A stretch of DNA of 64,000 nt. Source: Fidelibacterota bacterium (GTDB taxonomy: Bacteria; Fidelibacterota; Marinisomatia; Marinisomatales; JABMOV01). The notes under the pieces were generated by a model, which did not search any database, was not told where the DNA came from, and was given only the letters and a program-made list of their open reading frames with translations. The stretch covers positions 9,898 to 73,897 of the forward strand of contig JABMOV010000139.1 in the NCBI GenBank assembly GCA_013203145.1, written 5' to 3'. A program made the translations under genes and the position numbers. The number at the start of each line of letters is the position of its first letter. Within the stretch, counting starts at the first letter, position 1. Positions 4,767-41,570 of this stretch are shown here, piece by piece.

Positions 4767-4770
4767 ATAT

Positions 4771-20393: not shown

Positions 20394-20507
20394 CACATTT
20401 CAATTATACGGATACTTCTTCTAAAAATTATCTTTCTTATACCAAAAATTATACAAAACACATCTGTTCTTATATCTGAGTAGTGTTTTATTTTTTCAAT
20501 TTACTAT

Positions 20508-20837
20508 CTAATGTCCACTGAGCGGTGTCCCAAAAATGCCGACTGCTAGTTCTGCCCAAATGAGCAGGAGGACAACCAGAAGAGCTACACAGACAGCAAT
20601 TTGGTACTTGATATTTTTTATCTTCCTTATTACAAGCTCACACATTAGACCAGTGCCGAGCAATAGAGCTCCCGCGACAACAAAATCGAACAAATTCCAA
20701 TTTACTTCATCTGTGAACTGCCCCGCTATTAATGGTATGAGCAATAAAATTGCTGAAGTGACCACGATTATGATAAGTCTTTTATTCTGCATAATTATAA
20801 ATGTTCTTATAAGTCTTACATTTCTGGTAACGGCCAT
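20508..20837 (-). CDS. Small membrane protein, unknown function
   Basis: 109-aa ORF with 3 hydrophobic helices. The start may be the internal Met (MQNKRL). Confidence 0.4.
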   Translation of the reverse strand: MAVTRNVRLIRTFIIMQNKRLIIIVVTSAILLLIPLIAGQFTDEVNWNLFDFVVAGALLLGTGLMCELVIRKIKNIKYQIAVCVALLVVLLLIWAELAVGIFGTPLSGH

Positions 20838-20893
20838 GGCTAAGGCGCGTTTTTAATGCGTCTTTAGCTTCTGTTATATGCTGGCTTTATTTT

Positions 20894-21295
20894 TTAATCT
20901 TCATTTGGTGCTACTAATTCAACTTTTATTCGGTCAGGATCTTCAAAAAAGAGCGCATAGTAATCCTTGCCTCCAGCGAACGGGTACTTATCATCATATA
21001 AAAGTTTGATGTTTTTTTCCTTTAATTTTTGCGTTATATCGTCCACCATTGTACGAGATTCGGCATGAAAGGCTATATGGTTTAGTCCTGTCCTCTTTCT
21101 ATGATATCCCATGTCACGGTATTTTTCTTCTGTCTGAACAAAGACTAAATACGTATCGAACAGTTTATAACTTATCCCTTCCTTCCATTTCTGGTATATG
21201 TCATATCCCAATTCGCTTAAAAACCAGCTCCAAAACTCAGTAGTTCTTCCCAAATCACTAACATATATCTCAATATGGTGTACTGTTCCTTTCAT
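20894..21295 (-). CDS. VOC-family (glyoxalase/bleomycin-resistance/dioxygenase fold) protein
   Basis: 133 aa with N-terminal HHIEIYVSDL and a later NHIAFH metal-ligand pattern. Confidence 0.8.
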   Translation of the reverse strand: MKGTVHHIEIYVSDLGRTTEFWSWFLSELGYDIYQKWKEGISYKLFDTYLVFVQTEEKYRDMGYHRKRTGLNHIAFHAESRTMVDDITQKLKEKNIKLLYDDKYPFAGGKDYYALFFEDPDRIKVELVAPNED

Positions 21296-21307
21296 TTTTT
21301 TGCTTGC

Positions 21308-21491
21308 ACCTAACTTCTCGCTAAACGTAATTATTGGGTTTAGCGGGTTTACTATTTAATACACAGTTACGTTTAAACAGGAATAACACCAATAACCTCC
21401 ATTTATTATAAATCTCAAAAACCGTCCTTTATAAGACTTCACTAATTTAAATCAAATTCCCGTCTCATAACCACATTTAACCGTATCAAAA
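21308..21491. repeat. Junction repeat copy A (attC-like element)
   Basis: Aligns with 30730-30915 over ~185 nt at roughly 85-90% identity by eye. It contains the hairpin CGCTAAAC-11 nt-GTTTAGCG. On the minus strand it ends in GTTAGGT (21314-21308), 12 nt upstream of the VOC start. Confidence 0.6.
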
Positions 21492-21837
21492 CTCATCTCA
21501 AAAGGCCAAAAGTGTGCTTTAATAGGCAATGCTTGTGTCTGGTTTAGTCGTATATAAAGGGGCGGGACATATCAATAAATCCTAACTTAACATCTAGTCC
21601 ATTGATTAGGGGCAGGGCACAAATTTCTAAATGAAACTGTGATTTCAATTTTTCTTACGGTGATTTATTGAATAGGAGTGCTCATGATAGAGGTTTCTTT
21701 TATATCTTCGGGCGTCATTGTGGAACCTAGATTATGAAAATGCTCAGAATTGACAATGAAGCAAATTAAAATGAATGTATTTGTTGTGGCTAAAACAATT
21801 TTAAGAATAAAACGAAAATAAGGGATAACCTGCTATT

Positions 21838-23082
21838 ATGATTGAAATCATTCAAGACTGGCTTGTAAATCAAGGAATCAATAATGCATTATCTGTTGGT
21901 TTGGTAAGAAGTGTTTTATTCATTCTGGTAATCGTTCTTGGGTTTATTGCCAATGGTGTAACCAAACGTATTATCCTGTCAGGATTATCCACTATTATAG
22001 CCCGTACTGAATTTAAATGGGACGACACCTTTCTAAAATGGAACGTCCTTAATAAGCTCTCCCACATGGCTCCGGTCATTGTGATTTATATTGCATCTCC
22101 ACTGGTGCTCACGGGGTATGACCGGTTGATAGCCTTGATTACAAGCGCCCTTTTCATTTACATGATAATTATTGTTATTCTGGTCATTGATTCTGCTCTC
22201 AACGCTTTCCTTGATATTTACAAAACGTATGAGATTGCTAGGGAAATCCCAATCAAAGGTTTGGTTCAGGTTTTAAAGATAGCAGTCTATTTCATAGGTG
22301 GAATCTTTGTTTTGTCCATTATTCTTAACAAAACGCCCATTTATCTGCTGAGTGGTCTTGGTGCATTAACTGCTGTACTCATGTTAATTTTCAAAGATAC
22401 AATCTTGGGATTTGTAGCAGGGATTCAACTTACAGCTAATAAAATGGTAGCATATGGCGACTGGATTGAAATGCCCCAATATGGGGCCGATGGTGACGTT
22501 CTGGAAGTTGCATTAACAACGGTTAAAATACAAAACTGGGATAAAACTATAACGACAATTCCCACTTCAGCTTTAATCAACGAATCATTTAAAAATTGGC
22601 GTGGTATGAGCGAATCGGGTGGACGGCGGATAAAAAGGGCAATCTACCTTGATATAAGCAGTATCAGATTATGCACAGAGGAAATGCTGGAGAATTTTCT
22701 CAAAATTCAATATATCTCAGAATATATTGAGAAGCAGAAACGAGCGGTTGCTGAATACAATGTCACCAGTGGGATTGATGATTCAAGCCTTGTAAATGGA
22801 CGGAGACTTACTAATATCGGGACCTTTCGGGCCTATATTTTTGCCTATCTAAAAAACCATCCTATGATTAACCAGGATATGACTTTTCTTATCCGTCAGT
22901 TAGCGCCCACGAAAGATGGTTTGCCCATTGAGATTTATGTCTTCTGTAAGGACAAAGAATGGATTAACTATGAAAAGATCCAAGCCGACATTTTTGATCA
23001 TCTTCTGGCTATTGTTCCTGAATTTGGTTTAAAAGTTTTTCAAAATCCTACAGGAAGCGATTTTAATGAATTTACTAGATAG
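21838..23082 (+). CDS. MscS-family mechanosensitive channel
   Basis: 414 aa with N-terminal TMs and an MscS beta-domain (GDWIEMPQYGADGDVLEVALTTVKIQNWDKTITTIPTSAL). Confidence 0.85.
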   Translation: MIEIIQDWLVNQGINNALSVGLVRSVLFILVIVLGFIANGVTKRIILSGLSTIIARTEFKWDDTFLKWNVLNKLSHMAPVIVIYIASPLVLTGYDRLIALITSALFIYMIIIVILVIDSALNAFLDIYKTYEIAREIPIKGLVQVLKIAVYFIGGIFVLSIILNKTPIYLLSGLGALTAVLMLIFKDTILGFVAGIQLTANKMVAYGDWIEMPQYGADGDVLEVALTTVKIQNWDKTITTIPTSALINESFKNWRGMSESGGRRIKRAIYLDISSIRLCTEEMLENFLKIQYISEYIEKQKRAVAEYNVTSGIDDSSLVNGRRLTNIGTFRAYIFAYLKNHPMINQDMTFLIRQLAPTKDGLPIEIYVFCKDKEWINYEKIQADIFDHLLAIVPEFGLKVFQNPTGSDFNEFTR

Positions 23083-23098
23083 ACATCGCAATTTGTTT

Positions 23099-24496
23099 TT
23101 ATAGTACATGACTCTTGATTACCATCAGTTTTTCTCTCGTCATTTCGTGCATGGAATATTGAATTCCTCCCATACCAATTCCTGAAGTATCTCGTCCACC
23201 AAAAGGCATCCAATCAACACGGAAAGCAGTATGATCGTTCACCATAACAGCTGTTGCGTTAAGCTTTTTAACACATTCTAGAGCAACATCAATATTTTTT
23301 GTATAAACAGCAGCTTGAAAATGAACATCCAAACTATTGGCAATTTTAATGGCTTCATCACGATTTGAATAAGAATAGATACAAACTACCGGTCCAAAAA
23401 TTTCTAGAGTTGAGACCTTAGCATTTGCCGGTGGATTTAAAAGAACAGTTGGTTGATAACAGGTGTCAGAAATTCTTTTCCCGCCACACAATAATTTCGC
23501 CCCACCTTCTATGGCTTCATTTACCCACTTTTCAACTCTATCAACTTCCCTAGGAAAGATTAGCGGGCCCACTTCTGTTTTTTCATCCATTGGATCACCA
23601 ACTATTAAATTATTTGCCATTGCAGATAATTCATTGGCAACGTCATCACATATACTTTCATGAGCAAAAACGCGCTGGACAGACACACAAACTTGTCCGG
23701 CATGATAAAAACCACCTTTTGAAAGTGCCGGCATCATTTCTTTGAAATCGGCATCTTTTTCTACAATTACAGGAGCAGCTCCACCATGTTCTAGGGCGCA
23801 TCTTGTGCCGGGAGCTAATTTGGATTTCAAATACCAACCTACTTGCGGTGAACCGATGAAGGAAAAATAATTAACCCTCTTATCAGTAACCAAAAGCTCT
23901 CCCGCATCTCTATTGCAGATTACAACCTGGCACCAGCCATCAGGCAACCCTGCTTCCTTCAGGATATTTACTAAAGCCAAACAAGATAGGGGAGTAGCTA
24001 AAGCTGGTTTTATAATAACAGGGCATCCTGCTGCCACAGCGGTAACCACTTGGTGTACAATCAAATTAAGTGGATGATTAAATGCGCTGATAGATGTTAC
24101 TACGCCAATGGGTTCTCTTGTTGTAAAGGCAATTCTTCCTTCGGAAGCCTTGGTTAATCCCATTGGGATTTGTTCCCCCTTGAGTTGACCAATGTGTTCA
24201 GCGGCTATTTTTATTCCATTAATCGCTCTCAATACTTCCACTTTCGAATCGGTATAAGGTTTTCCGCCTTCTTGAGCTGCCGTATTGGTTAGCTCTTCAA
24301 TTCGCGTTTTCATTATTTCCGCGGTTTGTTCTAATATTGCGATTCGTTCATGTGCCGGAATCCACGTTGATTGGTCTAGAAAAAGGTTATATGCCTTTGT
24401 AAGTGCTTTATCTACTTCTTCTTTCCCAACTAATGGAATTTCCTTAATCAGCTTTAAATCATAGGGTGAGTTTACTTTTAACATTGGTTTTGTCAT
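23099..24496 (-). CDS. NAD(P)-dependent aldehyde dehydrogenase
   Basis: 465 aa with ALEHGG (the catalytic Glu region) and catalytic Cys context GQVCVSVQR. Confidence 0.88.
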   Translation of the reverse strand: MTKPMLKVNSPYDLKLIKEIPLVGKEEVDKALTKAYNLFLDQSTWIPAHERIAILEQTAEIMKTRIEELTNTAAQEGGKPYTDSKVEVLRAINGIKIAAEHIGQLKGEQIPMGLTKASEGRIAFTTREPIGVVTSISAFNHPLNLIVHQVVTAVAAGCPVIIKPALATPLSCLALVNILKEAGLPDGWCQVVICNRDAGELLVTDKRVNYFSFIGSPQVGWYLKSKLAPGTRCALEHGGAAPVIVEKDADFKEMMPALSKGGFYHAGQVCVSVQRVFAHESICDDVANELSAMANNLIVGDPMDEKTEVGPLIFPREVDRVEKWVNEAIEGGAKLLCGGKRISDTCYQPTVLLNPPANAKVSTLEIFGPVVCIYSYSNRDEAIKIANSLDVHFQAAVYTKNIDVALECVKKLNATAVMVNDHTAFRVDWMPFGGRDTSGIGMGGIQYSMHEMTREKLMVIKSHVL

Positions 24497-24518
24497 CTTA
24501 ATTCGTTCTCTCTTTATA

Positions 24519-26159
24519 TCAAAGGATACATGTTTTTTCTTTTAACAAAATATTCAATATTGAATGATTTAATGAATAATCTACTGCCAGATCAATTACA
24601 TGAACGCCATCTTTATGTAAACATTTTGTAAGAATTTTTCTAAAATCCTCATCACTTTTCGGTCTGTAACCCTTTGCACCATAGCTTTTTGCGTATTTAA
24701 CAAAATCTGGATTTTTGTAGTCCAACCCAAAGTTATCGAATCCCATTCCTTCTTGTTTCCATTTTATCATTCCATAGGCGCTATCATTCAAAATAATAAC
24801 AACTAAATTTAATCCTAATCGTACAGCCGTTTCTAATTCCTGAGAATTCATCATGAATCCACCATCACCACAAACAGAAATCACTTTTTTATCCGGATTA
24901 ATCAGTTTAGCTAATATTGCAGAAGGCAATCCTGCCCCCATTGTTGCCAAGGCATTATCTAATAATAACGTATTGTGCTGATAACATTTATAGTTTCTAG
25001 CAAACCAAATCTTATAAACACCATTATCCAAAGTAACAATACCATCATCAGTTAATTCTTCTCTGATAATGTGTACTAATCTTTGTGGTAGAATAGGAAA
25101 GCGGATATCTTTGGAGTATTTGCTCAGATGAAGTTCAACCTCATCTTTGACTCTTTGGAAATAGGACAAATCCCAGTTACCTGTTTCACGAATACTTGAA
25201 CCAATTAGTTCAATGGAAGTTGCGATATCGCCAATTACATTTAATTGAGGAAAATAAACTTCATCTACTTCGGCTGGGAAAAAGTTAATATGTATGACCT
25301 TTGTCCCTCCTTCTTCCATAAAAAATGGAGGTTTTTCAATTACATCATGTCCCACGTTTATTATTAAATCGGCTCTACTAATTGCGCAATGCAAAAAATC
25401 ATCTTTGGATAAAGCTGCTGTACCTAAAAATTTAGGGTGTCGTTCATCCACAACTCCTTTACCCATTTGTGTATCAAAAAAAGGAATTCCTGTTTTATCA
25501 ATAAATATAGATAAAGCTTTTTCTGTTCTTTTTCGGTTTGCACCAGCTCCAATTAACAATAAGGGCATTTTTGCCTGTTCAATCATTTTCACCGCATTCT
25601 GAATAGCTAATGTGTCTGCATCGGGTCTGCGATGTCCAACAACTTCAAATATTCTCTCGGTACATTCTTCAGCGGCAATGTCCTCTGGTAATTCTAAATG
25701 TACTGCTCCAGGTCTTTCTTCCATTGCTAAACGGAACGCCTCTCGAACCATTGAAGGGATATTATTTCCATTTACAATTTGTCGTGTGTATTTGGTTATT
25801 GGACGAAGTAGGTCAACTATATCAACAATCTGAAATCGACCTTGTTTTGATTTTTTAATCGGTTTTTGCCCGGTAATCATCATCATAGGCATTGCTCCCA
25901 ATTGCGCGTAGGCTGCCGGAGTAGTAAAGTTTGTAGCACCTGGCCCAAGCGTAGATAAACATACACCCGGTTTTCCCGTCAAACGACCATACGTAGCAGC
26001 CATGAAACCTGCTCCTTGTTCGTGTCGGGTAAGAACTAATTTAATTGTGGAGTGTCTAAGTGAATTCAAAAAATCAAGATTCTCTTCGCCTGGAATTCCA
26101 AAGATATATTCAACACCTTCGTTTTCGAGTGCTTTAATAAATAAATCTGATGCTTTCAT
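24519..26159 (-). CDS. ThDP-dependent acetolactate synthase-like enzyme (catabolic AlsS type)
   Basis: 546 aa with N-terminal GVEYIFGIPGEE and the ThDP-binding GDGGFMMNSQELET...N motif. Confidence 0.85.
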   Translation of the reverse strand: MKASDLFIKALENEGVEYIFGIPGEENLDFLNSLRHSTIKLVLTRHEQGAGFMAATYGRLTGKPGVCLSTLGPGATNFTTPAAYAQLGAMPMMMITGQKPIKKSKQGRFQIVDIVDLLRPITKYTRQIVNGNNIPSMVREAFRLAMEERPGAVHLELPEDIAAEECTERIFEVVGHRRPDADTLAIQNAVKMIEQAKMPLLLIGAGANRKRTEKALSIFIDKTGIPFFDTQMGKGVVDERHPKFLGTAALSKDDFLHCAISRADLIINVGHDVIEKPPFFMEEGGTKVIHINFFPAEVDEVYFPQLNVIGDIATSIELIGSSIRETGNWDLSYFQRVKDEVELHLSKYSKDIRFPILPQRLVHIIREELTDDGIVTLDNGVYKIWFARNYKCYQHNTLLLDNALATMGAGLPSAILAKLINPDKKVISVCGDGGFMMNSQELETAVRLGLNLVVIILNDSAYGMIKWKQEGMGFDNFGLDYKNPDFVKYAKSYGAKGYRPKSDEDFRKILTKCLHKDGVHVIDLAVDYSLNHSILNILLKEKTCIL

Positions 26160-26204
26160 ATTTCCCTTAAGTTTTTTTTAAAGTTAGCCTTTTATTGATT
26201 TAAT

Positions 26205-26305
26205 ACCCAACGTCCTTAATAACTGCAATTATTGGGTACTCTTTAATGCAAAGTTGCGTTTTAACCGGAACAACACATAGCCTTTGTTAGCGTTTCGTTG
26301 TTGTC
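26205..26305. repeat. Junction repeat copy D (short attC-like element)
   Basis: Shares AATTATTGGGTA...AATGCAAAGTTGCGTTTTAACCGGAACAACAC with copies A-C. On the minus strand it ends in GTTGGGT (26211-26205) upstream of the ALS gene and starts with ACAACAACGAAACGCTAAC just after the 195-aa ORF stop. Confidence 0.5.
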
Positions 26306-26317
26306 TTTCTCTTAAAT

Positions 26318-26905
26318 TCATTTTTTGATATTGTCCTTGTTTGGTGATACTAAAGGAATAACTTTTCTTACGATAAATATTATTCCAGTTCTAACATATA
26401 GATAAAGTACAACTCCTATTAAAGCTAATATACTACCCACTCCTGTGGGAAGAACTACACCAAATGTAAATGTCATGCCAATGACAAATCCTAAGAAACA
26501 TTCTGCTCGATAAATTGGAAAGAACAGAGCCAATAGAAAAAGTCCATACATCATATAGCCTGAAAGATTTGAATAACCAAGAGTGAAAAACACCGAAAGT
26601 AGTACTCCAAATGATAAAGCAAAGAGAAACCTGTAAGTAGATTTCATTGGAAAATTTAATGAGTTTGACTTATTACCATTGTTACTAATTAGTCGTTTTT
26701 GTATGCGAAAAGTTAGAAACAATGTAAGTAAAGGAAGTAAGAGACCTCCCCACCAATTAGAAATTTTAGGCAAGTCCTCCTGTTGTAGTATATGGTGGCT
26801 TGGTACACCACCATGGTAATGAGTCCATATTAATAGTGACCATATGCCAATTGCTACTATTCCCGTAAAATATAGACTTCTTTTTAAAAACGTTTTTTCA
26901 GTCAT
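26318..26905 (-). CDS. Polytopic membrane protein, unknown function (single-gene cassette)
   Basis: 195 aa, about 5-6 TM, with no recognisable motif. Confidence 0.5.
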   Translation of the reverse strand: MTEKTFLKRSLYFTGIVAIGIWSLLIWTHYHGGVPSHHILQQEDLPKISNWWGGLLLPLLTLFLTFRIQKRLISNNGNKSNSLNFPMKSTYRFLFALSFGVLLSVFFTLGYSNLSGYMMYGLFLLALFFPIYRAECFLGFVIGMTFTFGVVLPTGVGSILALIGVVLYLYVRTGIIFIVRKVIPLVSPNKDNIKK

Positions 26906-27008
26906 AATAATTTGATTTTAAGCGGTACGTTGTTTTTTCTTTCGTTGTTGTCTGCTGCCCAATTTTTATTTTGCTTGTTACAAACCGTTATTTTTCATCT
27001 AAAGCATT
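26906..27008. repeat. Junction spacer F (degenerate attC-like element)
   Basis: The minus strand reads AAATAACGG...AATTGGGCAG...GACAACAACGAAAG. It shares the ATAACG/ATTGGG half with copy C and the ACAACGAAA box with copies D and E. No clear GTT end is present. Confidence 0.3.
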
Positions 27009-27458
27009 TTACTTTTTGTATAAAGTTCTTACCTGTGGCAGTAAGGCAATAATAATAATGGCAATAGCAAAAAACATATAAAATGTATGTAACCAATGTA
27101 CGGCATGAAGAAACACCATTTGGATCTGTATCCAACTAATGAGTGTAAAAGCAATATAAATACTGTAAGTCCACGACCAGTGCATATCTTTAAATAAATT
27201 GATTTGCTCGGCTAGCTTGGATTCTGTTTTTTTTAGTAACGCAATTATCAGCAACAGGGGAATAAGCCCAAGAACTGAGAATAAAATAACCCCAGGTATA
27301 AAAAAACTACTAAAAGGAGATTTTTCTAACATAGATAAAGGCATTCCAATCAACTCTCCTGTAGGAGAAATTATCAATGCTCCACCTCCTCCAATTGCTC
27401 CCAATCCGAGGAATCCTAATAAAATCAAAAAGATATTTCGCGTTGTTTTTATTTTCAT
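27009..27458 (-). CDS. Four-TM membrane protein, unknown function (single-gene cassette)
   Basis: 149 aa with the Gly-rich first helix GLGAIGGGGALI. Confidence 0.5.
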   Translation of the reverse strand: MKIKTTRNIFLILLGFLGLGAIGGGGALIISPTGELIGMPLSMLEKSPFSSFFIPGVILFSVLGLIPLLLIIALLKKTESKLAEQINLFKDMHWSWTYSIYIAFTLISWIQIQMVFLHAVHWLHTFYMFFAIAIIIIALLPQVRTLYKK

Positions 27459-27503
27459 AACCTTTTCTTCGTTTTTTGGAATTGTCTCATGTGTTTAAAT
27501 GGT

Positions 27504-27713
27504 TTATAACGTCCCGCTAAACGTAATTATTGGGCTTATCGGGCAATACACAGTTATGTTTTAACCGGAAGAAGACCCACATACCTCCATTTATTATACA
27601 TATAATAAACCGTCCTCTTCATATATCTCAAAAATACGTCTTAAAACTCTAAGTCTCAATATGTTGAGATATGAGACACCCGTCCCATAATCAAAATCGA
27701 TTAGACGTTATGC
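27504..27713. repeat. Junction repeat copy C (best attC-like fold)
   Basis: The ends pair: ATAACGTC (27506-27513) with GACGTTAT (27704-27711). An inner pair, AATTATTGGG (27525-27534) with CCCATAAT (27684-27691), has one bulged T. The first ~100 nt are homologous to copies A and B. It contains module 2 (27625-27677). Confidence 0.6.
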
Positions 27714-27720
27714 TGTAGTT

Positions 27721-27966
27721 CTAAAGATCCTTTTTCATCTGATCAAATTCCAATTTGGTAATTTCACCTTTAGCATATCGCTTCTTGAGAATATCCAAAG
27801 CTGTTTCCGATTCTGTGCTATCGCGATGATTCCGGTCTGAATCACCCATCCATGGTGGTCTAAAGCCTCCGCGCCTTGACATTAGGAAAAAGAAAACCAT
27901 CATCGCTAGACACATTATAACGGGGAACATCCACCATCCACCCGACCACATATGTTCATTTCCCAT
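27721..27966 (-). CDS. SHOCT-domain small membrane protein
   Basis: 81 aa with an N-terminal TM and a C-terminal SHOCT motif (LDILKKRYAKGEITKLEFDQMKKDL). Confidence 0.75.
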   Translation of the reverse strand: MGNEHMWSGGWWMFPVIMCLAMMVFFFLMSRRGGFRPPWMGDSDRNHRDSTESETALDILKKRYAKGEITKLEFDQMKKDL

Positions 27967-28037
27967 TTGTATTACTCCTTCATTTTATCCAGTCAGATAT
28001 TACTGATGTGAATAAAATTTGTTAAGTATGGTGTTGT

Positions 28038-28302
28038 GCTTAACGTACTCAATAAATGGTGTTTTGTAAAGAATTAATCCGTTTCATCATCCCTCACCCA
28101 TTGATTGGATCACATTTTGTCCCACAAACCATCCTTTTTAAAACATCTCAAAACTACGTCTTAAAACTTTAATTCTCAATATGTTGAGATATGAGACTCT
28201 CGGGAGCTGTAATAGGCTAAAGTGACGAATAATTCGTGAAAAAATGACATACGAGGCAGTGAAAGGTTTATGGTTTGCTAACGTTTGTTGGCGTTTCGTT
28301 GT
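28038..28302. repeat. Junction repeat copy E (attC-like element downstream of Thoeris)
   Basis: Module 2 at 28145-28197 matches 27625-27677 at 50/53 nt. The minus strand begins ACAACGAAACGCCAAC directly after the thsB stop and ends GTTAAGC (28044-28038). Confidence 0.55.
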
Positions 28303-28872
28303 TTATCCTACCCAATCAGCAAAATTGTTATAACCATCATTATCAATCCAATCATAAACCGAATATAATGATGATAATCTAAAGATTTTATTTCTTTTGA
28401 ATTCTTCAACTTCCTTAACCGTCCAACCATCTAAATCTGTATATTTTGTCCACTTTCCTTGAATGAAATTATGGAGACTTAGTTTCCCCCCTGTTTTGTC
28501 AAAGGAGTATCCTAAATAATAAAATGGATTATTTCCTTTATTTTTAGTTTTACCATCTTTGCCTTTTATGCTATTAATGTGTATTCCCAATAAATCATTG
28601 CCCTTTTCTAGGCTTTTCATTATTTCATAATCAACCCACCTGCGGTTAAATGTATCAGAACCTATAAGTACACAAGTAACAGAAGTATTTTTAAGTTCTC
28701 CATTAATAAGTCTTTTCAGCGCTAAAGCACTAGTTTTCTCTGCTGTTTCCCAAATTGAAGCATCAAAATACCCAGCACTCTTGTCCTTTGTTAATTTATG
28801 CTTTCTTACAACATTTGCTCTAAATTCAATTACATCTTTGTAATGAAAACTAAAAAATACTCGTTTAGCCAT
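28303..28872 (-). CDS. thsB: Thoeris ThsB, TIR-like (DUF1863-type) protein
   Basis: 189 aa with the N-terminal VFFSFHYKDV strand typical of TIR-like DUF1863. Its start lies 1 nt after the thsA stop. Confidence 0.8.
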   Translation of the reverse strand: MAKRVFFSFHYKDVIEFRANVVRKHKLTKDKSAGYFDASIWETAEKTSALALKRLINGELKNTSVTCVLIGSDTFNRRWVDYEIMKSLEKGNDLLGIHINSIKGKDGKTKNKGNNPFYYLGYSFDKTGGKLSLHNFIQGKWTKYTDLDGWTVKEVEEFKRNKIFRLSSLYSVYDWIDNDGYNNFADWVG

Positions 28873-28873
28873 T

Positions 28874-30310
28874 TTAAATATGATTTTGCAATAGGTTGAT
28901 TGCTTTAATTAAATTATTGATAATGGTTGATTCGTCAATATTATCTTGACCTAATGATATTATGGTGTCTTTCAACACCGGATTGTCAGGGTAGTATTCT
29001 TCATATTTATCAATAACCTTTTTCCATAATTCTTTAGATGCATAGCCAGTACATCCTATTGGTATTACTTTTAGTCCCAATTCCACTGCAATTTCAAATT
29101 CTTTTATTAATCCATCGGACAAGACAACTTTATTTTCAACTAATTTGTTTCCAAAAAAGAATATAGCAATACCAGCTTCTCCAAGCATTATGTGTCTATA
29201 ATGATTCCATGATTTTTCCCGTTCTACTGGGTCAGTAATATTCTGAGGAAAAGGTCTTAATATTAGATAATCATCTAATTGCCCTTTTTGGTTGTTGTAA
29301 ACATTTGTAAGAGTTCCATTTATCACAGAACTTCCAATGCCAAGACCAAAACCAGAGATTATCTTATAATTCTTCTCAGCTAACTTGGATGAAAAATTGA
29401 AAATCAAATTTTCAGCACCAAATTTCCCTAAATAGCCGTATTCATGTGCAGCACCTGAAATAAAAATATTTCGTCTACGCAGTTTTGTTTGAATTAATAG
29501 AAGAACTTCGGTAATCTCATTATAATCATCTATCATTAAAGCTTGAATCCCGTATCTTTTCAAATCCTTTATACGGTGTTCCTGCTTAATTTTATCATAC
29601 AGGTATTCATCACATATTTTATAGCTGTCCTCTGAAATTGTTTTGAAAAAACAATAATGGTCAGGAGTATGATTACCAAGAAGAATTCTAATTCGACTTA
29701 ATATATATTCAAGATTTGGGTCTTCAAAACTGAAACCAATAAACAAAAATGTTTTTGATACTAAATCACCTTGTAACGCAGTCGTAAATAACTGACGCTT
29801 TTCATTATAGTTTTCATAATCGTCTTTTGTCAAAACAGCATCATGACTCAGAGTGATATCACCATGCATTTTATAGATTACAGCTTCTCTACGAGGTTTA
29901 CTTATTGCTAAATTTTCAGTACATCTTTTGACATCAGTAATTTTACCAAACTTTTCTATAGTTTTTTCAATTAAATCATCATAATTGGTTGTCCAGTAAG
30001 TTTTAATAGGTAAGGAAGCCAGAATCTGATGATTTATGCTTTCTTTTACATCCTTTGTGAATTGCTCAATTAACTGGTCATTAATACTTCCTCTGCTTCC
30101 CTTCTCATTCTCATAGTATTGAGCAACTGCAATTAAGTCTGTTTCCTTATCGACATTGAGGTTTAATTCCTCTGCCATTTCTCGAAGCAATTCCTTCCAA
30201 TTAACCAACCCAGATGAAACTGACATACCAGCTCCAGCGAATATCGCTGCGTTTTCTGCATTAATTGATTTGATATATTTGTCAACGAATTGTGTTAGTT
30301 GTCTTTTCAT
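28874..30310 (-). CDS. thsA: Thoeris ThsA, SIR2 NADase domain plus C-terminal SLOG sensor domain
   Basis: 478 aa. SIR2_2-type motifs are present (AAIFAGAGMS, WTTNYDDLIE, YKMHGD). The C-terminal half is SLOG-like and Gly-rich (FISGAAHEYG, ISGFGLGIGSSVING). Confidence 0.88.
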   Translation of the reverse strand: MKRQLTQFVDKYIKSINAENAAIFAGAGMSVSSGLVNWKELLREMAEELNLNVDKETDLIAVAQYYENEKGSRGSINDQLIEQFTKDVKESINHQILASLPIKTYWTTNYDDLIEKTIEKFGKITDVKRCTENLAISKPRREAVIYKMHGDITLSHDAVLTKDDYENYNEKRQLFTTALQGDLVSKTFLFIGFSFEDPNLEYILSRIRILLGNHTPDHYCFFKTISEDSYKICDEYLYDKIKQEHRIKDLKRYGIQALMIDDYNEITEVLLLIQTKLRRRNIFISGAAHEYGYLGKFGAENLIFNFSSKLAEKNYKIISGFGLGIGSSVINGTLTNVYNNQKGQLDDYLILRPFPQNITDPVEREKSWNHYRHIMLGEAGIAIFFFGNKLVENKVVLSDGLIKEFEIAVELGLKVIPIGCTGYASKELWKKVIDKYEEYYPDNPVLKDTIISLGQDNIDESTIINNLIKAINLLQNHI

Positions 30311-30320
30311 TTTATCTTAT

Positions 30321-30692
30321 TTATGACAGCACAGTTTTTAAATTATCCCATGTCCAGTCGTACAACGCTCCAGCATTTTCAACTCTTGTTGGGTTTGTTC
30401 CCTGTGGTTTTATTTGAACTGTTTTTATATAATTATTTCTAGCCATTTTAACTTCCTTCTTGACACCACTAGCTCTATAAGTGGATGTGCCAGCTATTAC
30501 AACCACAATATCAGACCTTTTTATTTTAGCAAGAGCTTTATCCTCCCAGTCTTTTTCTGGTACAGCTTCTTTTAAAGACCAATCCGAAATTTCAAATGGT
30601 GAATCGGGTAATTTTGCTTGTCCAGCAAGTAAGTTTTTCAGACTTAAATCATTATCAAAATCAAAGCTTATAAATACTCTTTTTTTACTCAT
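30321..30692 (-). CDS. thsB: Second, divergent Thoeris ThsB-like TIR-like protein
   Basis: 123 aa with RVFISFDFDND...DIVVVIAG...GVKKEV, the pattern of short TIR-like/DUF1863 proteins. It lies 10 nt upstream of thsA. Confidence 0.7.
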   Translation of the reverse strand: MSKKRVFISFDFDNDLSLKNLLAGQAKLPDSPFEISDWSLKEAVPEKDWEDKALAKIKRSDIVVVIAGTSTYRASGVKKEVKMARNNYIKTVQIKPQGTNPTRVENAGALYDWTWDNLKTVLS

Positions 30693-30729
30693 AATATTTC
30701 AATTTAGGTGCATGTGTCTTTACAATGAA

Positions 30730-30915
30730 CGCCAACTTTCCGCTAAACGTAAATTATTAGGTTTAGCGGGTTTATTCTTTAATACAAAGTTACGTTTTAA
30801 CCGGAATAACACCCATATACCTCCATTTATTATAAATTTCAAAAACCATCCCTTTTAAGACTTTACCAATTTAAATCAAAAACTCGTCTCATAACCACAT
30901 TTAACTGTATCAAAA
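30730..30915. repeat. Junction repeat copy B (attC-like element upstream of Thoeris)
   Basis: See copy A. On the minus strand it ends in GTTGGCG (30736-30730), 37 nt upstream of the thsB' start. Confidence 0.6.
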
Positions 30916-31007
30916 TCAATGTCTCAAAATGCAAATATAAGTTTTGAGAAATATTAAAAAAAGAGATGAAAGAAAGATTAACCTCCGGCATCCCATATCA
31001 CTTCATT

Positions 31008-31028
31008 CTTAAAACTTAATATCCTGCC
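31008..31028. repeat. Internal copy of the island-boundary motif
   Basis: CTTAAAACTTAATATCCTGCC matches the reverse complement of 20371-20390 (CTTAAAACTTATATCTTGCC) and 32819-32850. Confidence 0.55.
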
Positions 31029-31091
31029 ACTTGATGAGCCGTTAGCAACAAACTTTTTCGAAATTTCATCAAAATAGTTATTGTATTACAT

Positions 31092-31109
31092 TTACTGCCA
31101 TAGCAGTAA
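31092..31109. promoter_or_regulatory. Putative HipB operator 1
   Basis: TTACTGC-CATA-GCAGTAA, with perfect 7-bp arms. Confidence 0.55.
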
Positions 31110-31162
31110 TACAAAGCAAACAATTCTATTTGTCTATCAAATCTATCTTTTGCGATCAATTA

Positions 31163-31180
31163 ATACCGCCATAGCGGTAA
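31163..31180. promoter_or_regulatory. Putative HipB operator 2
   Basis: ATACCGC-CATA-GCGGTAA, with 6-bp perfect arms, 71 bp from operator 1. Confidence 0.55.
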
Positions 31181-31235
31181 TTATTTCATGTTTTAATATA
31201 AAGAACTTGTTTTTAAAATTAATATCAATCTATAT

Positions 31236-31253
31236 TTACCGCCATGTCAGTAA
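31236..31253. promoter_or_regulatory. Putative HipB operator 3 (overlaps the hipB start codon)
   Basis: TTACCGC-CATG-TCAGTAA, an imperfect copy of the same 18-mer, 73 bp from operator 2. The ATG at 31244 lies in its spacer. Confidence 0.5.
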
Positions 31254-31486
31254 AGAATGAGTTACACAACGTGATTTTATATCACAGAAAAAAAGCAAAA
31301 TTAGGTCGAAATGAGTTGGCAGAATTAGCAGGTGTTGGTAAAACAGTAATATACGATTTAGAAAAAGGTAAAAAGACTGTTAAGTGGTCAACAATAATGA
31401 CAATTCTTGAAGCGTTGAATATTGAGATAACGTTTCAAAGCCCATTAATGGAAGAATATGAGAAAAGCAAGAATAAGAACCCATAA
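31244..31486 (+). CDS. hipB: XRE-family HTH protein, HipB of a tripartite HipBST module
   Basis: 80 aa with the HTH LGRNELAELAGVGKTVIYDLEKGKKTV. Confidence 0.8.
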   Translation: MSVKNELHNVILYHRKKAKLGRNELAELAGVGKTVIYDLEKGKKTVKWSTIMTILEALNIEITFQSPLMEEYEKSKNKNP

Positions 31487-31778
31487 TACTAAAGCCGGGA
31501 TTCTAACCGAGTATAGTAAAACACATTATGTTTTTCAATATGATATTGGTTATGAAGGTCCTCCCATATCTCTTACAATGCCGGTACGAGATAATCCTTA
31601 TGAATTTGACTCTTTCCCGCCCTTTTTTGATGGCTTACTCCCTGAAGGAATACAATTAGAAGGTTTGCTGAAATATAATAAGATAGATAAATCGGATTAC
31701 TTCAAACAATTATTGGCAACGGGGCAGGATTTAGTAGGAGCGGTTACTGTAGAAGAAATCGACACCTTTGATGAATAG
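31458..31778 (+). CDS. hipS: HipS: stand-alone HipA N-terminal-subdomain protein
   Basis: 106 aa matching the HipA N-terminal domain pattern (AGILTE...YVFQYD..., PPFFDGLLPEG). It overlaps hipB by 29 nt and hipT by 11 nt. Confidence 0.78.
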   Translation: MRKARIRTHNTKAGILTEYSKTHYVFQYDIGYEGPPISLTMPVRDNPYEFDSFPPFFDGLLPEGIQLEGLLKYNKIDKSDYFKQLLATGQDLVGAVTVEEIDTFDE

Positions 31779-32697
31779 ATGCCCAATTACATATGAACCA
31801 TGCAAAGGCAAATACAGTAAAACCGGTCTGGCAAAGTTATCGCCTCGCTTAACAGAGTTAGTCGATTTACCATTTACTGCACAAGAGCAAAGACGTGAAG
31901 CGGCCTCAAGAGCAACAAAAACGTCTATCCAGGGAGTTCAGCCTAAACTAAGCGCAAGGCTCTCTGTGAAAAGTTCATCATTGGAAATAGTCGATATTAA
32001 AGGAACGTTTATCCTTAAGCCACAAAGTGACATTTTTAGAGAGGTTCCAGAGAACGAGGATGTTACTATGAAGATGGCTAAAATCCTTGGGATTGATGTT
32101 CCCTTAACCGGGTTAGTTTTCTCAAAGGATGGAAGCTTAAGCTATTTCATAAAGCGATTTGACAGGTACGGTACTAATAAGAAAAAACATTTAGAAGATT
32201 TTGCTCAGTTGACAAATAATACGAGAGAAACAAAATACAATTGGTCTATGGAAAAATTAATTCCCGTAATTGATTCTAATTGTACTTTCCCATTAATTGA
32301 AAAGAGAAAATTGTTCAGAAGGATGCTTTTTTGCTTTCTTATTGGAAACGAGGATATGCATTTAAAGAATTTTAGTTTAATAATGCACGACAATATAATA
32401 GAACTCAGCCCGGCATATGACCTGCTTAACTCTACGATTTCAATGGAAAGGGCAACAGAAGAATTTGCTTTACCACTTGCAGGGAAAAAAAGAAAGATAA
32501 CAAGGAAAGACCTAGTAACATATTTTGGAATGGATTGGTTACGGTTAACAGGAAAAACAATAGAATCTGAAATCCAAAATATAAAAGACAAAAAATCAGA
32601 CCTGGAGAGCTTAATACATATTTCTTTCCTAACTAAAGAAATGAAAGAAAAGTATCTTGAATTAATGTCAAATAGATATGAAAGATTAATGGAATAA
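31768..32697 (+). CDS. hipT: HipT: HipA-family Ser/Thr kinase toxin lacking the N-terminal subdomain
   Basis: 309 aa with the Gly-rich/P-loop TSIQGVQPKLS and catalytic loop GNEDMHLKNFSL, followed by SPAYDLLNS. Confidence 0.85.
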   Translation: MMNRCPITYEPCKGKYSKTGLAKLSPRLTELVDLPFTAQEQRREAASRATKTSIQGVQPKLSARLSVKSSSLEIVDIKGTFILKPQSDIFREVPENEDVTMKMAKILGIDVPLTGLVFSKDGSLSYFIKRFDRYGTNKKKHLEDFAQLTNNTRETKYNWSMEKLIPVIDSNCTFPLIEKRKLFRRMLFCFLIGNEDMHLKNFSLIMHDNIIELSPAYDLLNSTISMERATEEFALPLAGKKRKITRKDLVTYFGMDWLRLTGKTIESEIQNIKDKKSDLESLIHISFLTKEMKEKYLELMSNRYERLME

Positions 32698-32815
32698 AGT
32701 CAGCAGCTTATAGTGTATAAACGAAAGGCGTGGTGAATCATTAATAACTCCCTGCGCAATTAATTTCTTTTAATTCATTCCTCGATAACATCTACCCCTT
32801 TTATCTTTTATAGTA

Positions 32816-32857
32816 AACCTTAAAACTTCAGCCTTCAATTACTATCTTCCCCTAAAT
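32816..32857. repeat. Island right-boundary motif
   Basis: AACCTTAAAACTT-(14-nt insert)-TATCTTCCCCTAAAT, directly upstream of prmC. It is an inverted match to 20364-20393 and a direct match to 31008-31028. Confidence 0.6.
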
Positions 32858-33745
32858 TTGGTGCATTCTATGAGCACTGAACCGAAAACCTGGCGAATTA
32901 TTGATATGCTGAAATGGGCGGAATCCTATTTTGGCGAACATGGTTTTCCCCATCCGCGTCGCGATATTGAAGTTTTGTTACAGGATTTACTACACTGCTC
33001 CCGTGTTGATTTATACTTACGCTTTGATGAGCCGTTGGATCGGCAACAATTAGACAAACTGCGATCATGGATAAAGCGCAGAACAAAAAAAGAGCCCATT
33101 CAATATATTACCGGGAAAACAGAGTTCTATGGACTGGAAATGGAAGTCAACGATTCTGTATTAATTCCGCGCCCCGAGACTGAACGGCTTGTGGATGTTG
33201 CCATTCATACGCTGGGGCAGAATGGATCTTCAAAAATTTTGGATATAGGAACAGGTTCTGGTTGTATTGCCATCGCACTGGCTCATGAAATGCCACAGGC
33301 GCATATTACAGCGGTTGATATTCATGATGCTGCTCTGGATTTGGCGAATACAAATAGCAAACGCCATAACGTGAACAATATTGAGTTTAGACAAATGGAT
33401 TTTCTTAAAGAAATTCCAGGTGGAAATTTTGATATGATTGTATGTAATCCACCCTATGTGCCGGAAATTGAGATGGAGTCGCTCATGCCCGATGTTAGAG
33501 ATTATGAGCCCCGCACTGCTCTCACAGATGGCATAGATGGTTTAACATTCTACCATCGCCTGGCCCAAACAGGTCCTGACATGTTGAAACATCGCGGTTG
33601 GATGATTATGGAAGTCGGTTTAGAAGACCATCCTGAAAACGCCAAGGCAATTTTTCAGAATTATCCCTATGGTTCATTGGAGCTCATATCAGATTATAAC
33701 GGGGATCCGCGAGTATTAAAGGTGCGACTTACGCAAGATGAATAA
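32858..33745 (+). CDS. prmC: Release-factor glutamine N5-methyltransferase PrmC/HemK
   Basis: Carries the SAM motif DIGTGSGCIAIA and catalytic NPPY (VCNPPYV). The track start is a TTG. The ATG at 32870 (MSTEPKTW) is the likelier start. Confidence 0.92.
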   Translation: MVHSMSTEPKTWRIIDMLKWAESYFGEHGFPHPRRDIEVLLQDLLHCSRVDLYLRFDEPLDRQQLDKLRSWIKRRTKKEPIQYITGKTEFYGLEMEVNDSVLIPRPETERLVDVAIHTLGQNGSSKILDIGTGSGCIAIALAHEMPQAHITAVDIHDAALDLANTNSKRHNVNNIEFRQMDFLKEIPGGNFDMIVCNPPYVPEIEMESLMPDVRDYEPRTALTDGIDGLTFYHRLAQTGPDMLKHRGWMIMEVGLEDHPENAKAIFQNYPYGSLELISDYNGDPRVLKVRLTQDE

Positions 33746-34577
33746 ATTTATTGCAGGGATTCGTTTACTGCGCCCGCTGAACTGTCTGACTGGCGCTGTG
33801 GTTGTATTTGTTGCAGCAGCAATTACACATTCACTGGATCACATATCACTATTGCTTACTGCCATGGCCGTTGTCATGTTTTACAATGGTGGCGCCAATG
33901 CAATTAACGATTATTATGATTACGAAATTGATAAAATCAATCGTCCTGATCGTCCATTGAGTTCAGGAATGCTCACAAAAAAAACAGGATTACTCATAGC
34001 CATTTCTTTATTTATTCTGGGAACACTTTTGGCTATTCAATTAAACACAATTGCGATGTTGATTGCCATTTTGTTAGCCATGCCAATTTTAATATTTTAT
34101 ACGATAGGTTTAAAAAATAGACCTTTGATAGGAAATATGGCAGTGGCGTTAATCCTGGGATTGGTTTTCATCTTTGCCGGTGCAGTCTTTGAATCCATAG
34201 CCATCATGATCGTTCCGGCCGTTTTAGCTTTTTTGCTCACATTTCTTAGAGAAGTCATAAAAGACGTAGAAGATATGGAAGGCGATAATAAAATGGGGCT
34301 ACGTACATTCCCCATCGTTGCAGGGACGACGGCAACCTACCGCATTGTTCGTTGGTGGGCATTCTTCACCGGATTAATTATGTTATTACCAGTCTGGTAT
34401 GAATATTACACCATTCAGTATTTATGGATTGTCTTGATCGGTATTAATCTTCCCTTACTGTACATTATAACAAAATTTTCATTTGAGCCGGATATGAAAA
34501 CGGTTTCATTATCAGCGAAACTCCTTAAAATCAGTACCATTGCAGGTGTAATTGCAGTTTATTTTGGTTCTGTTTAA
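33738..34577 (+). CDS. UbiA-family prenyltransferase
   Basis: 279 aa, polytopic, with the Asp-rich motif NDYYDYEIDKINRPDRPL and a second motif KDVEDMEGD. It overlaps prmC by 8 nt. Confidence 0.85.
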   Translation: MNKFIAGIRLLRPLNCLTGAVVVFVAAAITHSLDHISLLLTAMAVVMFYNGGANAINDYYDYEIDKINRPDRPLSSGMLTKKTGLLIAISLFILGTLLAIQLNTIAMLIAILLAMPILIFYTIGLKNRPLIGNMAVALILGLVFIFAGAVFESIAIMIVPAVLAFLLTFLREVIKDVEDMEGDNKMGLRTFPIVAGTTATYRIVRWWAFFTGLIMLLPVWYEYYTIQYLWIVLIGINLPLLYIITKFSFEPDMKTVSLSAKLLKISTIAGVIAVYFGSV

Positions 34578-34653
34578 CAGGGAAGACAACCAAGCGATGA
34601 AATCTCAATCAATTATAGAAACGTTGTAAATTGAACCTCACTTTGGAGTAATT

Positions 34654-36093
34654 ATGCGAAATTTTATAATTCTAATTCTGTTGTTTTCTTTTGGATTTTC
34701 TCAACCTGACGATACAGGGCTCACTCTGGAACGTTACCCAATTCTTGTTCTTCCTGCTGACACCACCACGGACTCAGAATCCATTGAAGTTACCTTAACC
34801 AATATAGTTGGAAGTCAGGCTACAAATCTTAATCGATTTGATGTCATTGACCGCGCACAATTGGAAAGCATTTTGAATGAACAAGCGCTTCAAATGTCGG
34901 GGATTGTAAGTGATGAGGATGTGGTAGAGGCAGGGCGTGTAGCATCTGCAAAAGAGGCGTTGGTTGTAAAAGTGATCAATTTTGGACAAAAGGGCGTACC
35001 ACCAGAGGATGAAGAAGAGGAAGACGAAAAAGACCGCAAAGAAGCGCGTAAATCTGGACTTTTTGGAGTACTTGCAAAAGGAATCGTGGATGCCGTTGTC
35101 GATAAGGCGATGGAAGATGTGGAACGTTACCCCAATAATATTCAGACTGTAATCCAGGCGGAAGTACGGAAGATTGATATCGAAAGCGGCAAGTCGGTTG
35201 CTTCATTTCCCATAAATGTGACGCATACGGGAGGGAATCTATCAAAATCTCTTGGAAGTGCATTAGCCGTAGTGACCGCACAAGTTTCCTCCGAATTGAG
35301 AAATCTTTATTTGTTAACCAGCGAATTATTAGATGTAAACGGTGAAGAAATCATGCTGCTTTTGGGTCATGATTTAGGTCTTGAATCCGGTATGCGATTT
35401 GAAATTGTTACACCGGAAGTAAAACGCACAGTTCGAGACAGAGAAATCACCATTCCCGGTCGTAGTGTTGGTTTGGTCAAAGTTGATGAAGTCAGTGGCG
35501 ATGCCAGCCGTGGCAGAGTCTTGAGATCGTGGGACGATTTAGAACCAGGTTATCGTGCAGTTGAATATTTAAAGCCCGTATTTAGTATGGGAATTCTTCT
35601 TGCTACCGCTCCTGCAAATACTATTTACCGATTAGAATTCCAAGCAACTCCGTTGCCCTTTGAGCGGTTCATTGCAATGGGAGTATTTAATCTGGGTACA
35701 ATCAAAGATACATTTGATGACACAGATTTCAGCTTTGGAATTGGCGCCAAACTGGGATGGAAATTTTTACACGGCTCTGGGCGATCTATAGGTTTTATGC
35801 TTTCATTACCCATGCATTTTGCATCGCGTTCTGATGATAAATCACATATCGTAATTCTTCCCATCTTTGCACCTAGCATTGGGGCTTCCACAGCGATTCA
35901 AATAAGCAAAAGCCGTGACATCATTTTTAATGTGGACTATGTTTTTACATCTGCCAAAGGTAGTTGGAAATACTCCAAAGATAATGATGACGATGAAACG
36001 GATATGTTTGATGCTGAATGGGATGATGATGCTCCCGATGTCAAACCTGAAGGATTGTATTTTTCTCTTGGGATGAGATTTTTGACACTATAA
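34654..36093 (+). CDS. Secreted protein with a CsgG/LpoB-like N-terminal module and a probable C-terminal beta-barrel
   Basis: 479 aa with a signal peptide. The segment NRFDVIDRAQLESILNEQALQMSGIV resembles CsgG/LpoB-type modules. An acidic linker follows, and the protein ends in an aromatic-rich beta pattern (...GLYFSLGMRFLTL). Confidence 0.4.
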   Translation: MRNFIILILLFSFGFSQPDDTGLTLERYPILVLPADTTTDSESIEVTLTNIVGSQATNLNRFDVIDRAQLESILNEQALQMSGIVSDEDVVEAGRVASAKEALVVKVINFGQKGVPPEDEEEEDEKDRKEARKSGLFGVLAKGIVDAVVDKAMEDVERYPNNIQTVIQAEVRKIDIESGKSVASFPINVTHTGGNLSKSLGSALAVVTAQVSSELRNLYLLTSELLDVNGEEIMLLLGHDLGLESGMRFEIVTPEVKRTVRDREITIPGRSVGLVKVDEVSGDASRGRVLRSWDDLEPGYRAVEYLKPVFSMGILLATAPANTIYRLEFQATPLPFERFIAMGVFNLGTIKDTFDDTDFSFGIGAKLGWKFLHGSGRSIGFMLSLPMHFASRSDDKSHIVILPIFAPSIGASTAIQISKSRDIIFNVDYVFTSAKGSWKYSKDNDDDETDMFDAEWDDDAPDVKPEGLYFSLGMRFLTL

Positions 36094-41502: not shown

Positions 41503-41570
41503 AAATGTCGGGAGAGTCAGTATTGTCCGTAATTCTCATTTGTCTTCGGGAATGAATATCCTCCTCAATA

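Follow-up and report, generated by a model that had tools for sequence, protein, structure and literature searches.

Within a 64,000-nt stretch of a Fidelibacterota bacterium genome (GenBank assembly GCA_013203145.1, contig JABMOV010000139.1; hereafter the window), we found a complete type I Thoeris anti-phage operon. Its end sequences and homology boundaries support the view that it is a discrete integron-type cassette of 2,454 bp, running from 30735 to 28282 on the minus strand. The explanation we favour, and consider very likely, is that this cassette was inserted at a local hairpin, has since lost its own attC recombination site and is now moved by homologous recombination. The effector–sensor logic of such a textbook type I Thoeris is already understood, and the value of the locus lies in its mobility.

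The three genes, thsB′, thsA and thsB, are contiguous and co-oriented (Table 1), with 10 nt between thsB′ and thsA and 1 nt between thsA and thsB. Open reading frames (ORFs), Pfam and PADLOC all agree with an earlier note on this DNA, which had read them as a complete three-gene Thoeris system in a single operon. The 478-aa protein that the note had taken for a SIR2–SLOG ThsA matched PF13289 (SIR2_2; 5.7e-29) at its N terminus and PF18185 (STALD/SLOG; 1.3e-70, 209 of 211 profile positions covered) at its C terminus, both above the gathering score. The PADLOC models assigned it to ThsA1 (2e-197) and the 189-aa ThsB to ThsB1 (8e-55). Aligned with BcThsA structure 6LHX (436 bits), from the type I Thoeris of Bacillus cereus MSX-D12, it carries N109/H149 at the positions of the NADase residues N112/H152. 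The equivalents of R371, K388, G399 and E403 in the SLOG domain are kept, and S290 is replaced by Ala. ThsB passed the ThsB_TIR profile PF08937 (4.4e-21; 75.6 bits, cut-off 21.2) and matched BcThsB 6LHY/9B7D over its full length (251 bits), 6LHY being ThsB of the same B. cereus system; the catalytic glutamate, E83, is retained within WVDYEI (pattern WVxYEI in the 6LHY alignment).

The 123-aa ThsB′ passed the same profile at 34 bits (4e-8), and no pairwise similarity to ThsB was detected (best BLASTP E = 0.098), which bears out the description of the flanking proteins as TIR-like yet mutually unrelated. An AlphaFold2 (AF2) model of ThsB′, built from a 27-sequence alignment (predicted local distance difference test score, pLDDT, 91.8), adopts a TIR/flavodoxin-like fold whose top Protein Data Bank matches are B. 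cereus TIR 8FZ9 (template-modelling (TM) score 0.77), EcThsB 8WCF and the SARM1 TIR domain; residue E80 is invariant across the 27 homologues. The suggestion that 123 aa lies at the minimal end for such a protein did not hold up. The size is normal, because nearly all of the 1,108 homologues in the family are 122–124 aa long; some of these, from Bacteroidales, Campylobacterota and Verrucomicrobia, are annotated as ThsB-like TIR proteins. Judged by every feature that sequence can test, the operon encodes a canonical type I Thoeris, close to the B. cereus model.

In type I Thoeris, a cyclic ADP-ribose isomer made by a TIR protein activates the ThsA NADase, leading to abortive infection. By analogy with B. 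cereus, ThsB, ThsB′ or both would sense phage and turn NAD+ into such an isomer (3′cADPR). Its binding to the SLOG domain of ThsA would switch on the SIR2 NADase, deplete NAD+ and abort phage replication. Two unrelated TIR sensors may broaden the range of phages recognized.

The operon is bracketed by an inverted repeat. We located both copies of the 9-mer described in the earlier note, GTTGGCGTT at 28287–28295 on the plus strand and its reverse complement at 30728–30736, and found them to be the only two in the window (0.32 expected by chance). The repeat extends to 28287–28301 versus 30723–30736, with 13 of 15 matches and one 1-nt bulge (a bulged A). At the upstream end, the core site GTTGGCG agrees with the consensus GTTRRRY at 5 of 7 positions. 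There, two independent homology blocks abut at G↓TTGGCGTT (30736/30735; the arrow marks the cut position of a core site), the local hairpin family stopping where the Thoeris cassette family starts. GC content is 0.32 in the Thoeris cassette, 0.35 in the surrounding island and 0.39 outside the island.

The same cassette occurs elsewhere. ThsA homologues 77–88% identical to the one in the window lie on other metagenomic contigs (given here by L numbers) in the same ThsB′(123)–ThsA–ThsB(189–194) order, which is kept in L017, L019, L021, L022, L024 and L027. Several hundred ThsA sequences share at least 65% identity. BLASTN comparison of the window with L017, L019 and L020 aligned 30736..28285/28284 and nothing else. 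Against these three loci, and against L023 and L027, homology starts exactly at the core site (R′), and the upstream flanks are unrelated, diverging right before G↓TT(G/A)GCG(T/G)TCATTG. After the thsB stop, the orthologues read CAACGA(A)(A/C)CGC(C/T)AAC, and downstream similarity to them fades past AACGCCAACAA. DNA homology thus both starts and stops exactly at the repeats in at least five other metagenomic contexts.

The two ends also change together. The core site and the inverse core (R″) form the pair GTTGGCGTT/AACGCCAAC in the window, L017 and L023, GTTAGCGTT/AACGCTAAC in L019, L020 and L027, and GTTAGCGGTC/GACCGCTAAC in L022, this third co-varying pair also being written GTTAGCGGT/ACCGCTAAC. 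Across 13 pairs, pairing is complete (100%), with two double-sided changes and zero single-sided ones, which indicates that pairing between the cassette ends is under selection. With exact homology boundaries and compensatory changes both in hand, the inverted 9-mers are best described, as the earlier note had proposed, as the core and inverse-core sites of a cassette.

Canonical attC sites of 130–135 nt follow the inverse core in L017, L019/L020, L022, L023 and L027. Their layout comprises a 3-nt spacer, a 20–23-bp imperfect stem, a variable loop and a G↓TT core 130–135 nt downstream. Those of L019 (9808–9943; z = −5.2) and L017 (12018–12150; z = −2.4) fold better than shuffled sequences, and those of L022, L023 and L027 were read from sequence. 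Neighbouring genes in L019, L022, L023 and L027 are likewise set apart by attC-like inverted repeats, which in L019 include long sites of about 175 nt; these neighbours comprise Gabija GajA/GajB, GmrSD, an EcoRI-like methylase, a radical S-adenosylmethionine (radical-SAM) pair and small unknowns. Because the orthologues have textbook attC sites and neighbours divided by similar inverted repeats, the comparison identifies the Thoeris operon as a genuine integron-type cassette family. The cassette is common to Marinimicrobia and Bacteroidales-like genomes; the ThsA of the L021 type carries a Bacteroidales label in a cluster look-up.

Two of these contigs hold further variations. In L019, a complete Gabija pair (3150–7370), comprising an OLD-family GajA of 714 aa and a UvrD-like GajB of 576 aa, lies between two attC-like sites directly upstream of the Thoeris cassette; at about 4 kb it is unusually large. 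In L023 (7331–10160), the same cassette ends and attC enclose an operon in which a 207-aa TIR_2 protein replaces the 123-aa ThsB′ as first gene, a case of sensor swapping inside a fixed cassette frame; both TIR genes are present in L021.

Near-perfect terminal inverted repeats that bound shared DNA exactly in several genomes might instead belong to a non-autonomous mobile insertion cassette with 13–15-bp terminal repeats, akin to a miniature inverted-repeat transposable element (MITE), served by a transposase in trans and having no link to integrons. Insertion sequence (IS) elements do lie nearby in L017, L018 and L024. We nevertheless regard such an element as very improbable, because target-site duplications are absent from the window, L017 and L019 junctions, and every left end is a G↓TT next to the point where a hairpin site finishes. 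On the right, moreover, the unit continues as R″–L″–loop–L′–R′ and finishes in G↓TT in L017, L019, L022, L023 and L027, and adjacent unrelated genes have complementary ends of their own (for example, GTTATGCAA/TTGCATAAC in L027). Covariation of the ends is what strand pairing predicts, whereas binding by a transposase would demand identical ends.

A plain defence-island Thoeris that arrived by generic horizontal transfer is equally hard to credit; the 9-mers and repeats would then be incidental, for instance as repetitive extragenic palindrome (REP)-like elements. Homologous modules without end sites do exist in L021 and L025/L026, in plain defence or phage-like contexts, so the module also occurs outside cassettes, and those in L018 and L024 are decayed or IS-disrupted. 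Homologous recombination between repeats would also account for the sister-strain difference described below. Against this, six independent contexts have their homology boundaries at the repeats, the ends co-vary, and the 9-mer is unique to its two positions in the window.

The integron-type cassette in the window differs from its orthologues at its 3′ end. After R″, the window reads AAAC-GTTAGC, identical to the final 10 nt of the attC in L019 (CAAAC GTTAGC), but lacks the roughly 110-nt L″–loop–L′ part found in L017, L019, L022, L023 and L027. This is most simply explained by deletion of the attC hairpin, leaving what appears to be a collapsed attC. Since the stem-loop has seemingly been lost, the window copy is probably no longer mobilizable and the cassette probably immobilized. 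The earlier note had set the limits of the cassette at 28038–30736; a single cassette starting at the core site stands, and its 3′ end moves to 28282, as conservation across genomes extends to about 28282–28285 rather than to 28038. The stretch 28281..28045 would then be a separate gene-less segment holding a degenerate local repeat.

We also weighed the longer unit, 28038–30736, in which the 260 nt from AACGCCAAC (28295) to GTTAAGC (28044..28038) would form a very long attC recognized by an integrase in trans. GTTAAGC agrees with GTTRRRY and marks the point at which the repeat ceases to be conserved, GCATAAC directly after the SHOCT stop matches 6 of 7 positions of the GTTAAGC complement, and attC-like sites in L019 reach about 175 nt. 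The region 28030–28300, however, folds like shuffled sequence (z = +1.06), and its hairpin part is degenerate. Orthologues end in a compact 130–135-nt attC, the last 10 nt of which the window retains after R″, and the genome is without a known integrase. These points make the long site unlikely, and we retain the shorter cassette ending at 28282.

A related site lies elsewhere in the island. The Thoeris-family inverse core AACAACGAAACGC(C/T)AACAAA also follows an unrelated 195-aa ORF at 26318–26905 (26278–26302 compared with 28279–28303). There the motif is fused to a local hairpin, and AACGCTAACAAAGGCTATGTG agrees with the beginning of the attC in L019, which suggests a chimeric or decayed attC.

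The local hairpins belong to junction repeats of roughly 190 nt, at about 21313–21491, 26205–26302, 27503–27715, 28038–28276 and 30725–30915, between which the island genes lie. Each ends in a hairpin of roughly 70 nt, and in every copy, including those of the sister genome, conservation halts exactly at an AAC/GTT triplet, the next four bases being different. An abrupt stop of this kind would be expected at attC core sites. The attC-like junctions that finish in G↓TT number five or six. Of the local hairpins, only the one at the upstream end of the Thoeris cassette (j30k) is significantly more stable than its shuffled versions (DNA fold −16.3 kcal/mol; z = −4.2). We considered and rejected the whole repeats of roughly 190–260 nt as long attC sites, since folding was significant only for the 70-nt j30k hairpin; outside the hairpin, roughly 120 nt per repeat showed no stable fold. 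In the gene-less copy between Thoeris and SHOCT, 28138–28202 is 88% identical to 27618–27682, and the hairpin part has decayed.

The unstructured arm contains a conserved TTAAAA-18-TATAAT (30858..30829 on the minus strand, and at like positions in other repeats) that points into the downstream cassette and may be a repeat-borne promoter. An Rfam scan of the window, using a database without an attC family, gave zero matches. A scan of GTDB representatives with the junction-repeat motif TTCCNGTTNAAACNNAACTNTGNATT returned one match, L003, which we discarded as fortuitous, since it lies within the gene for an ABC permease. Among the Joint Genome Institute (JGI) metagenome matches to TTCCNGTTNAAACNNAACTNTGNATT, 4 of 6 (L004, L005, L008 and L009), plus L006, were not similar to the window. 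The only informative match of the TTCCNGTTNAAACNNAACTNTGNATT scans was FLOH01 (L007), from the sister genome.

That sister genome (GCA_900089805.1, FLOH01) encodes a release factor 1 (RF-1) 98% identical to the one beside the island; the nearest named relatives are Fidelibacterota/Ca. Marinimicrobia metagenome-assembled genomes (MAGs), and an identical ThsA is deposited as ‘MAG: SIR2 family protein [Candidatus Marinimicrobia bacterium]’. The sister contig FLOH01000018.1 (L007) aligns to 23358–27616 (97.8%) and 30734–34853 (94.2%), with a mosaic repeat at the junction. Its hairpin part resembles the 27.5-kb copy and its distal part the 30.8-kb/21.4-kb type. Because this repeat is a mosaic rather than a G↓TT cut product, we interpret the junction as homologous recombination between direct repeats. 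Reading the sister-strain indel as the outcome of integrase cutting was rejected, the crossover lying inside the repeat (near 27616/30851). In a more distant relative (82% RF-1), prfA is not followed by an island. With gene content differing between strains, the island is a strain-variable hotspot, reshuffled without visible integrase action.

Table 1. Coordinates of the Thoeris cassette and associated features in the window
Feature	Position	Strand	Description and basis
thsB′ (123-aa TIR-like)	30321..30692	minus	First gene of the operon; Pfam, AF2 model
thsA (478 aa; SIR2 NADase and SLOG/STALD effector)	28874..30310	minus	Pfam, PADLOC, 6LHX alignment
thsB (189-aa TIR cyclase-type sensor)	28303..28872	minus	Pfam, PADLOC, 6LHY/9B7D alignment
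Cassette 5′ end, core site R′	30723..30736	minus	G↓TTGGCGTTCATTG; first cassette bases TT at 30735
Inverse core R″	28287..28301	minus	CAACGAAACGCCAAC, 2 nt past the thsB stop; pairs with cassette start at 13/15
AAAC + G↓TTAGC, apparent 3′ remnant of attC	28277..28286	minus	Putative cassette end at G 28282
attC-like hairpin j30k	30728..30796	plus	AACG..CAAC / CCGCTAAAC-loop-GTTTAGCGG / GTT.ACGTT; supplies G of the upstream core site
Unstructured conserved repeat arm upstream of the Thoeris cassette	30797..30915		83–89% identical to 21372–21491
Degenerate gene-less repeat copy between Thoeris and SHOCT	28038..28276		Ends GTTAAGC (28044..28038)
SHOCT gene and Thoeris cassette absent from sister FLOH01000018.1	27616..30734		L007 alignment
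Variable cassette-array-like island, roughly 12.5 kb	20400..32857		Between prfA and prmC; Pfam scans, strain comparison, GC

The island holds a 109-aa membrane ORF, glyoxalase, MscS, aldehyde dehydrogenase (ALDH) plus a thiamine pyrophosphate (TPP) enzyme, two hypothetical membrane proteins, SHOCT, Thoeris and a HipBA-like module. Apart from Thoeris, short minus-strand genes predominate, and the MscS gene is oppositely oriented. At 31244–32697 (+), the HipBA-like module, comprising a helix–turn–helix (HTH) protein of 80 aa, Couple_hipA of 106 aa and HipA_C of 309 aa, faces against the array and adjoins prmC, resembling toxin–antitoxin cassettes that stabilize chromosomal integron arrays. Where the window has 74 unrelated bp (21545–21617), FLOH01 has about 4 kb (L010:12143–16168) with two beta-lactamase-fold genes, an LCM-type methyltransferase and one more junction repeat, an event unlike simple repeat–repeat recombination.

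Two observations concern the DNA outside the island. An ORF at 15878–16846 (+) with Cas6b_N and Cas6b_C domains lies between rho and an aminotransferase, a placement conserved in the relatives L010 and L014; no CRISPR array or cas gene is nearby. REP-like palindromes GGGGCGATTCATGAATCGCCC occur in three copies (37144–37183, 41567–41606 and 42447–42486) beside or inside an IS200-like Y1 transposase ORF at 36870–37391, possibly a pair of REP and REP-associated tyrosine transposase (REP/RAYT), and similar palindromes, GGGCGAAT...ATTCGCCC, are present in L021.

Several results weigh against this account of an integron-type cassette that has lost its attC. We detected no complete foldable attC at the cassette end in the window, where 28180–28302 folds no better than shuffles (z = −1.0), and for that reason the cassette status of the window copy draws on other loci. 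The covariation sample comprises three distinct end-pairs only, and its shuffle control was weak (68/500). An alignment of the local hairpin copies contained no compensatory changes and several broken pairs. The FLOH01 difference lies off the G↓TT sites, so it does not demonstrate integrase-mediated movement in this lineage. A scan for sigma-70-like promoters returned nothing above chance for the region, including 30858..30829, and the Thoeris function assigned here is deduced solely from homology. Pfam scans of flanking ORFs and tblastn found no tyrosine recombinase or integron integrase in the 64-kb window, which also lacks attI and a cassette promoter (Pc).

The flanking ORFs checked for an integrase (14–40 kb) encode housekeeping proteins (rho, aminotransferase, DUF1385, prfA, prmC, UbiA and others). 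With no integrase in the window, the array is not a sedentary integron and is at best like a cluster of attC sites lacking integron integrases (CALIN).

Taken together, the evidence is consistent with the following course of events. The cassette starts at a G↓TT core site and closes with an inverse core that pairs with its own first bases. It circulates among other uncultured bacteria, Bacteroidales-like and others, beside further defence cassettes and with a canonical 130–135-nt attC. In the Marinimicrobia/Fidelibacterota chromosome, a local attC-like hairpin within the small integrase-less array between prfA and prmC would have received it at its G↓TT. The attC stem-loop of the cassette itself would have been lost later, and gain and loss between strains would since have proceeded mainly by homologous recombination between the roughly 190-nt repeats. 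Such a course offers a route to cassette fixation, in which loss of the attC hairpin precedes gain and loss through junction-repeat recombination, and bears on how CALINs persist.

Tyrosine recombinases head two of the orthologous arrays, at L027:553–2010 (450 aa) and L017:5518–6725 (383 aa), and are 43% identical to each other. In both, Thoeris is the second cassette behind the recombinase and is transcribed in the same direction. The first cassette begins 48–95 nt past the recombinase stop, at an attI-like G↓TTATGTGC in L017 and G↓TTATGCAA in L027, and its start is complementary at 9 of 9 positions to the inverse core of its own attC. We rejected these enzymes as bona fide IntI, as they score below the TIGR02249 cut-off and lack the IntI-specific insertion of ~42 aa. 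They align contiguously with XerA-type enzymes, the gap falling where VchIntIA has that insertion.

These arrays lead us to a broader proposal, which we put forward tentatively: attC-type cassettes may be the form in which full-size, multi-gene defence systems, such as the 2.45-kb Thoeris described here and the roughly 4-kb Gabija of L019, circulate in uncultured bacteria of the Fibrobacterota–Chlorobiota–Bacteroidota (FCB) group, including Marinimicrobia, possibly on a platform driven by a Xer-like recombinase. If a Xer-like recombinase does drive the exchange, it would constitute a non-canonical integron platform, free of the limits on size and on component number (≤2) inferred from Vibrio and RefSeq. 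The Xer-like recombinases heading the two arrays are the part of this work most deserving of follow-up.

Among characterized systems, the closest counterpart of the operon is the B. cereus MSX-D12 Thoeris, reportedly described in Doron 2018 and Ofir 2021. The two are alike in ThsA length (478 versus 476 aa), SIR2 and SLOG architecture and retained catalytic residues, in a full-length ThsB match with its catalytic glutamate, and in adjacent, co-oriented genes. The window locus differs in the extra, unrelated 123-aa TIR gene upstream of thsA, in its host (a Marinimicrobia MAG rather than a Firmicute) and in its attC-type cassette carrier. Thoeris loci with multiple ThsB proteins are known, for example that of Bacillus dafuensis with ThsB1/ThsB2, and Doron 2018 is said to have noted several diverse thsB genes around thsA. 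Such loci share with ours one ThsA and two divergent TIR sensors per operon; here, however, the second TIR protein is of the compact 123-aa MTH538/DUF1863-like form.

As for the carrier, defence systems in integron cassettes are already established (Darracq 2024 preprint; Kieffer 2025 preprint). Darracq et al. (bioRxiv 10.1101/2024.07.02.601686) counted 783 defence systems in RefSeq integron cassettes, 73% of them in Vibrio, and stated from complete RefSeq genomes that integron systems are streamlined and ‘never exceed 2 components’; their main text does not mention Thoeris. Kieffer et al. (bioRxiv 10.1101/2024.07.02.601719) described pseudo-attC copies outside integrons, and mobile-integron cassettes in which ThsB homologues are paired with non-ThsA partners only. 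Integrons have been reported in many phyla, including Bacteroidota, and Marinimicrobia is not on the 2021 list (PMC8618304).

The locus resembles these integron-cassette systems, a literature in which CALINs are counted as integron-derived arrays, in placing an anti-phage system between consecutive attC-type sites, arrayed with other defence cassettes. It differs in being a full-length three-gene Thoeris cassette of 2.45 kb found in FCB-group and Marinimicrobia genomes, and so widens both the size range (three genes versus the reported two-component limit) and the taxonomic range (beyond the concentration in Vibrio). At the level of sequence, it is a clean case of a complete, non-streamlined three-gene defence system that moves as one attC-bounded cassette between distantly related uncultured bacteria. 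The island itself is most like the system of a 2016 paper (PMC4889954), which shares its co-oriented short genes, attC-like hairpins conserved up to G↓TT, lack of a nearby integrase and reverse-oriented toxin–antitoxin module. Here, by comparison, the putative sites lie within roughly 190-nt repeats that carry a long unstructured conserved arm, and several of them have decayed.

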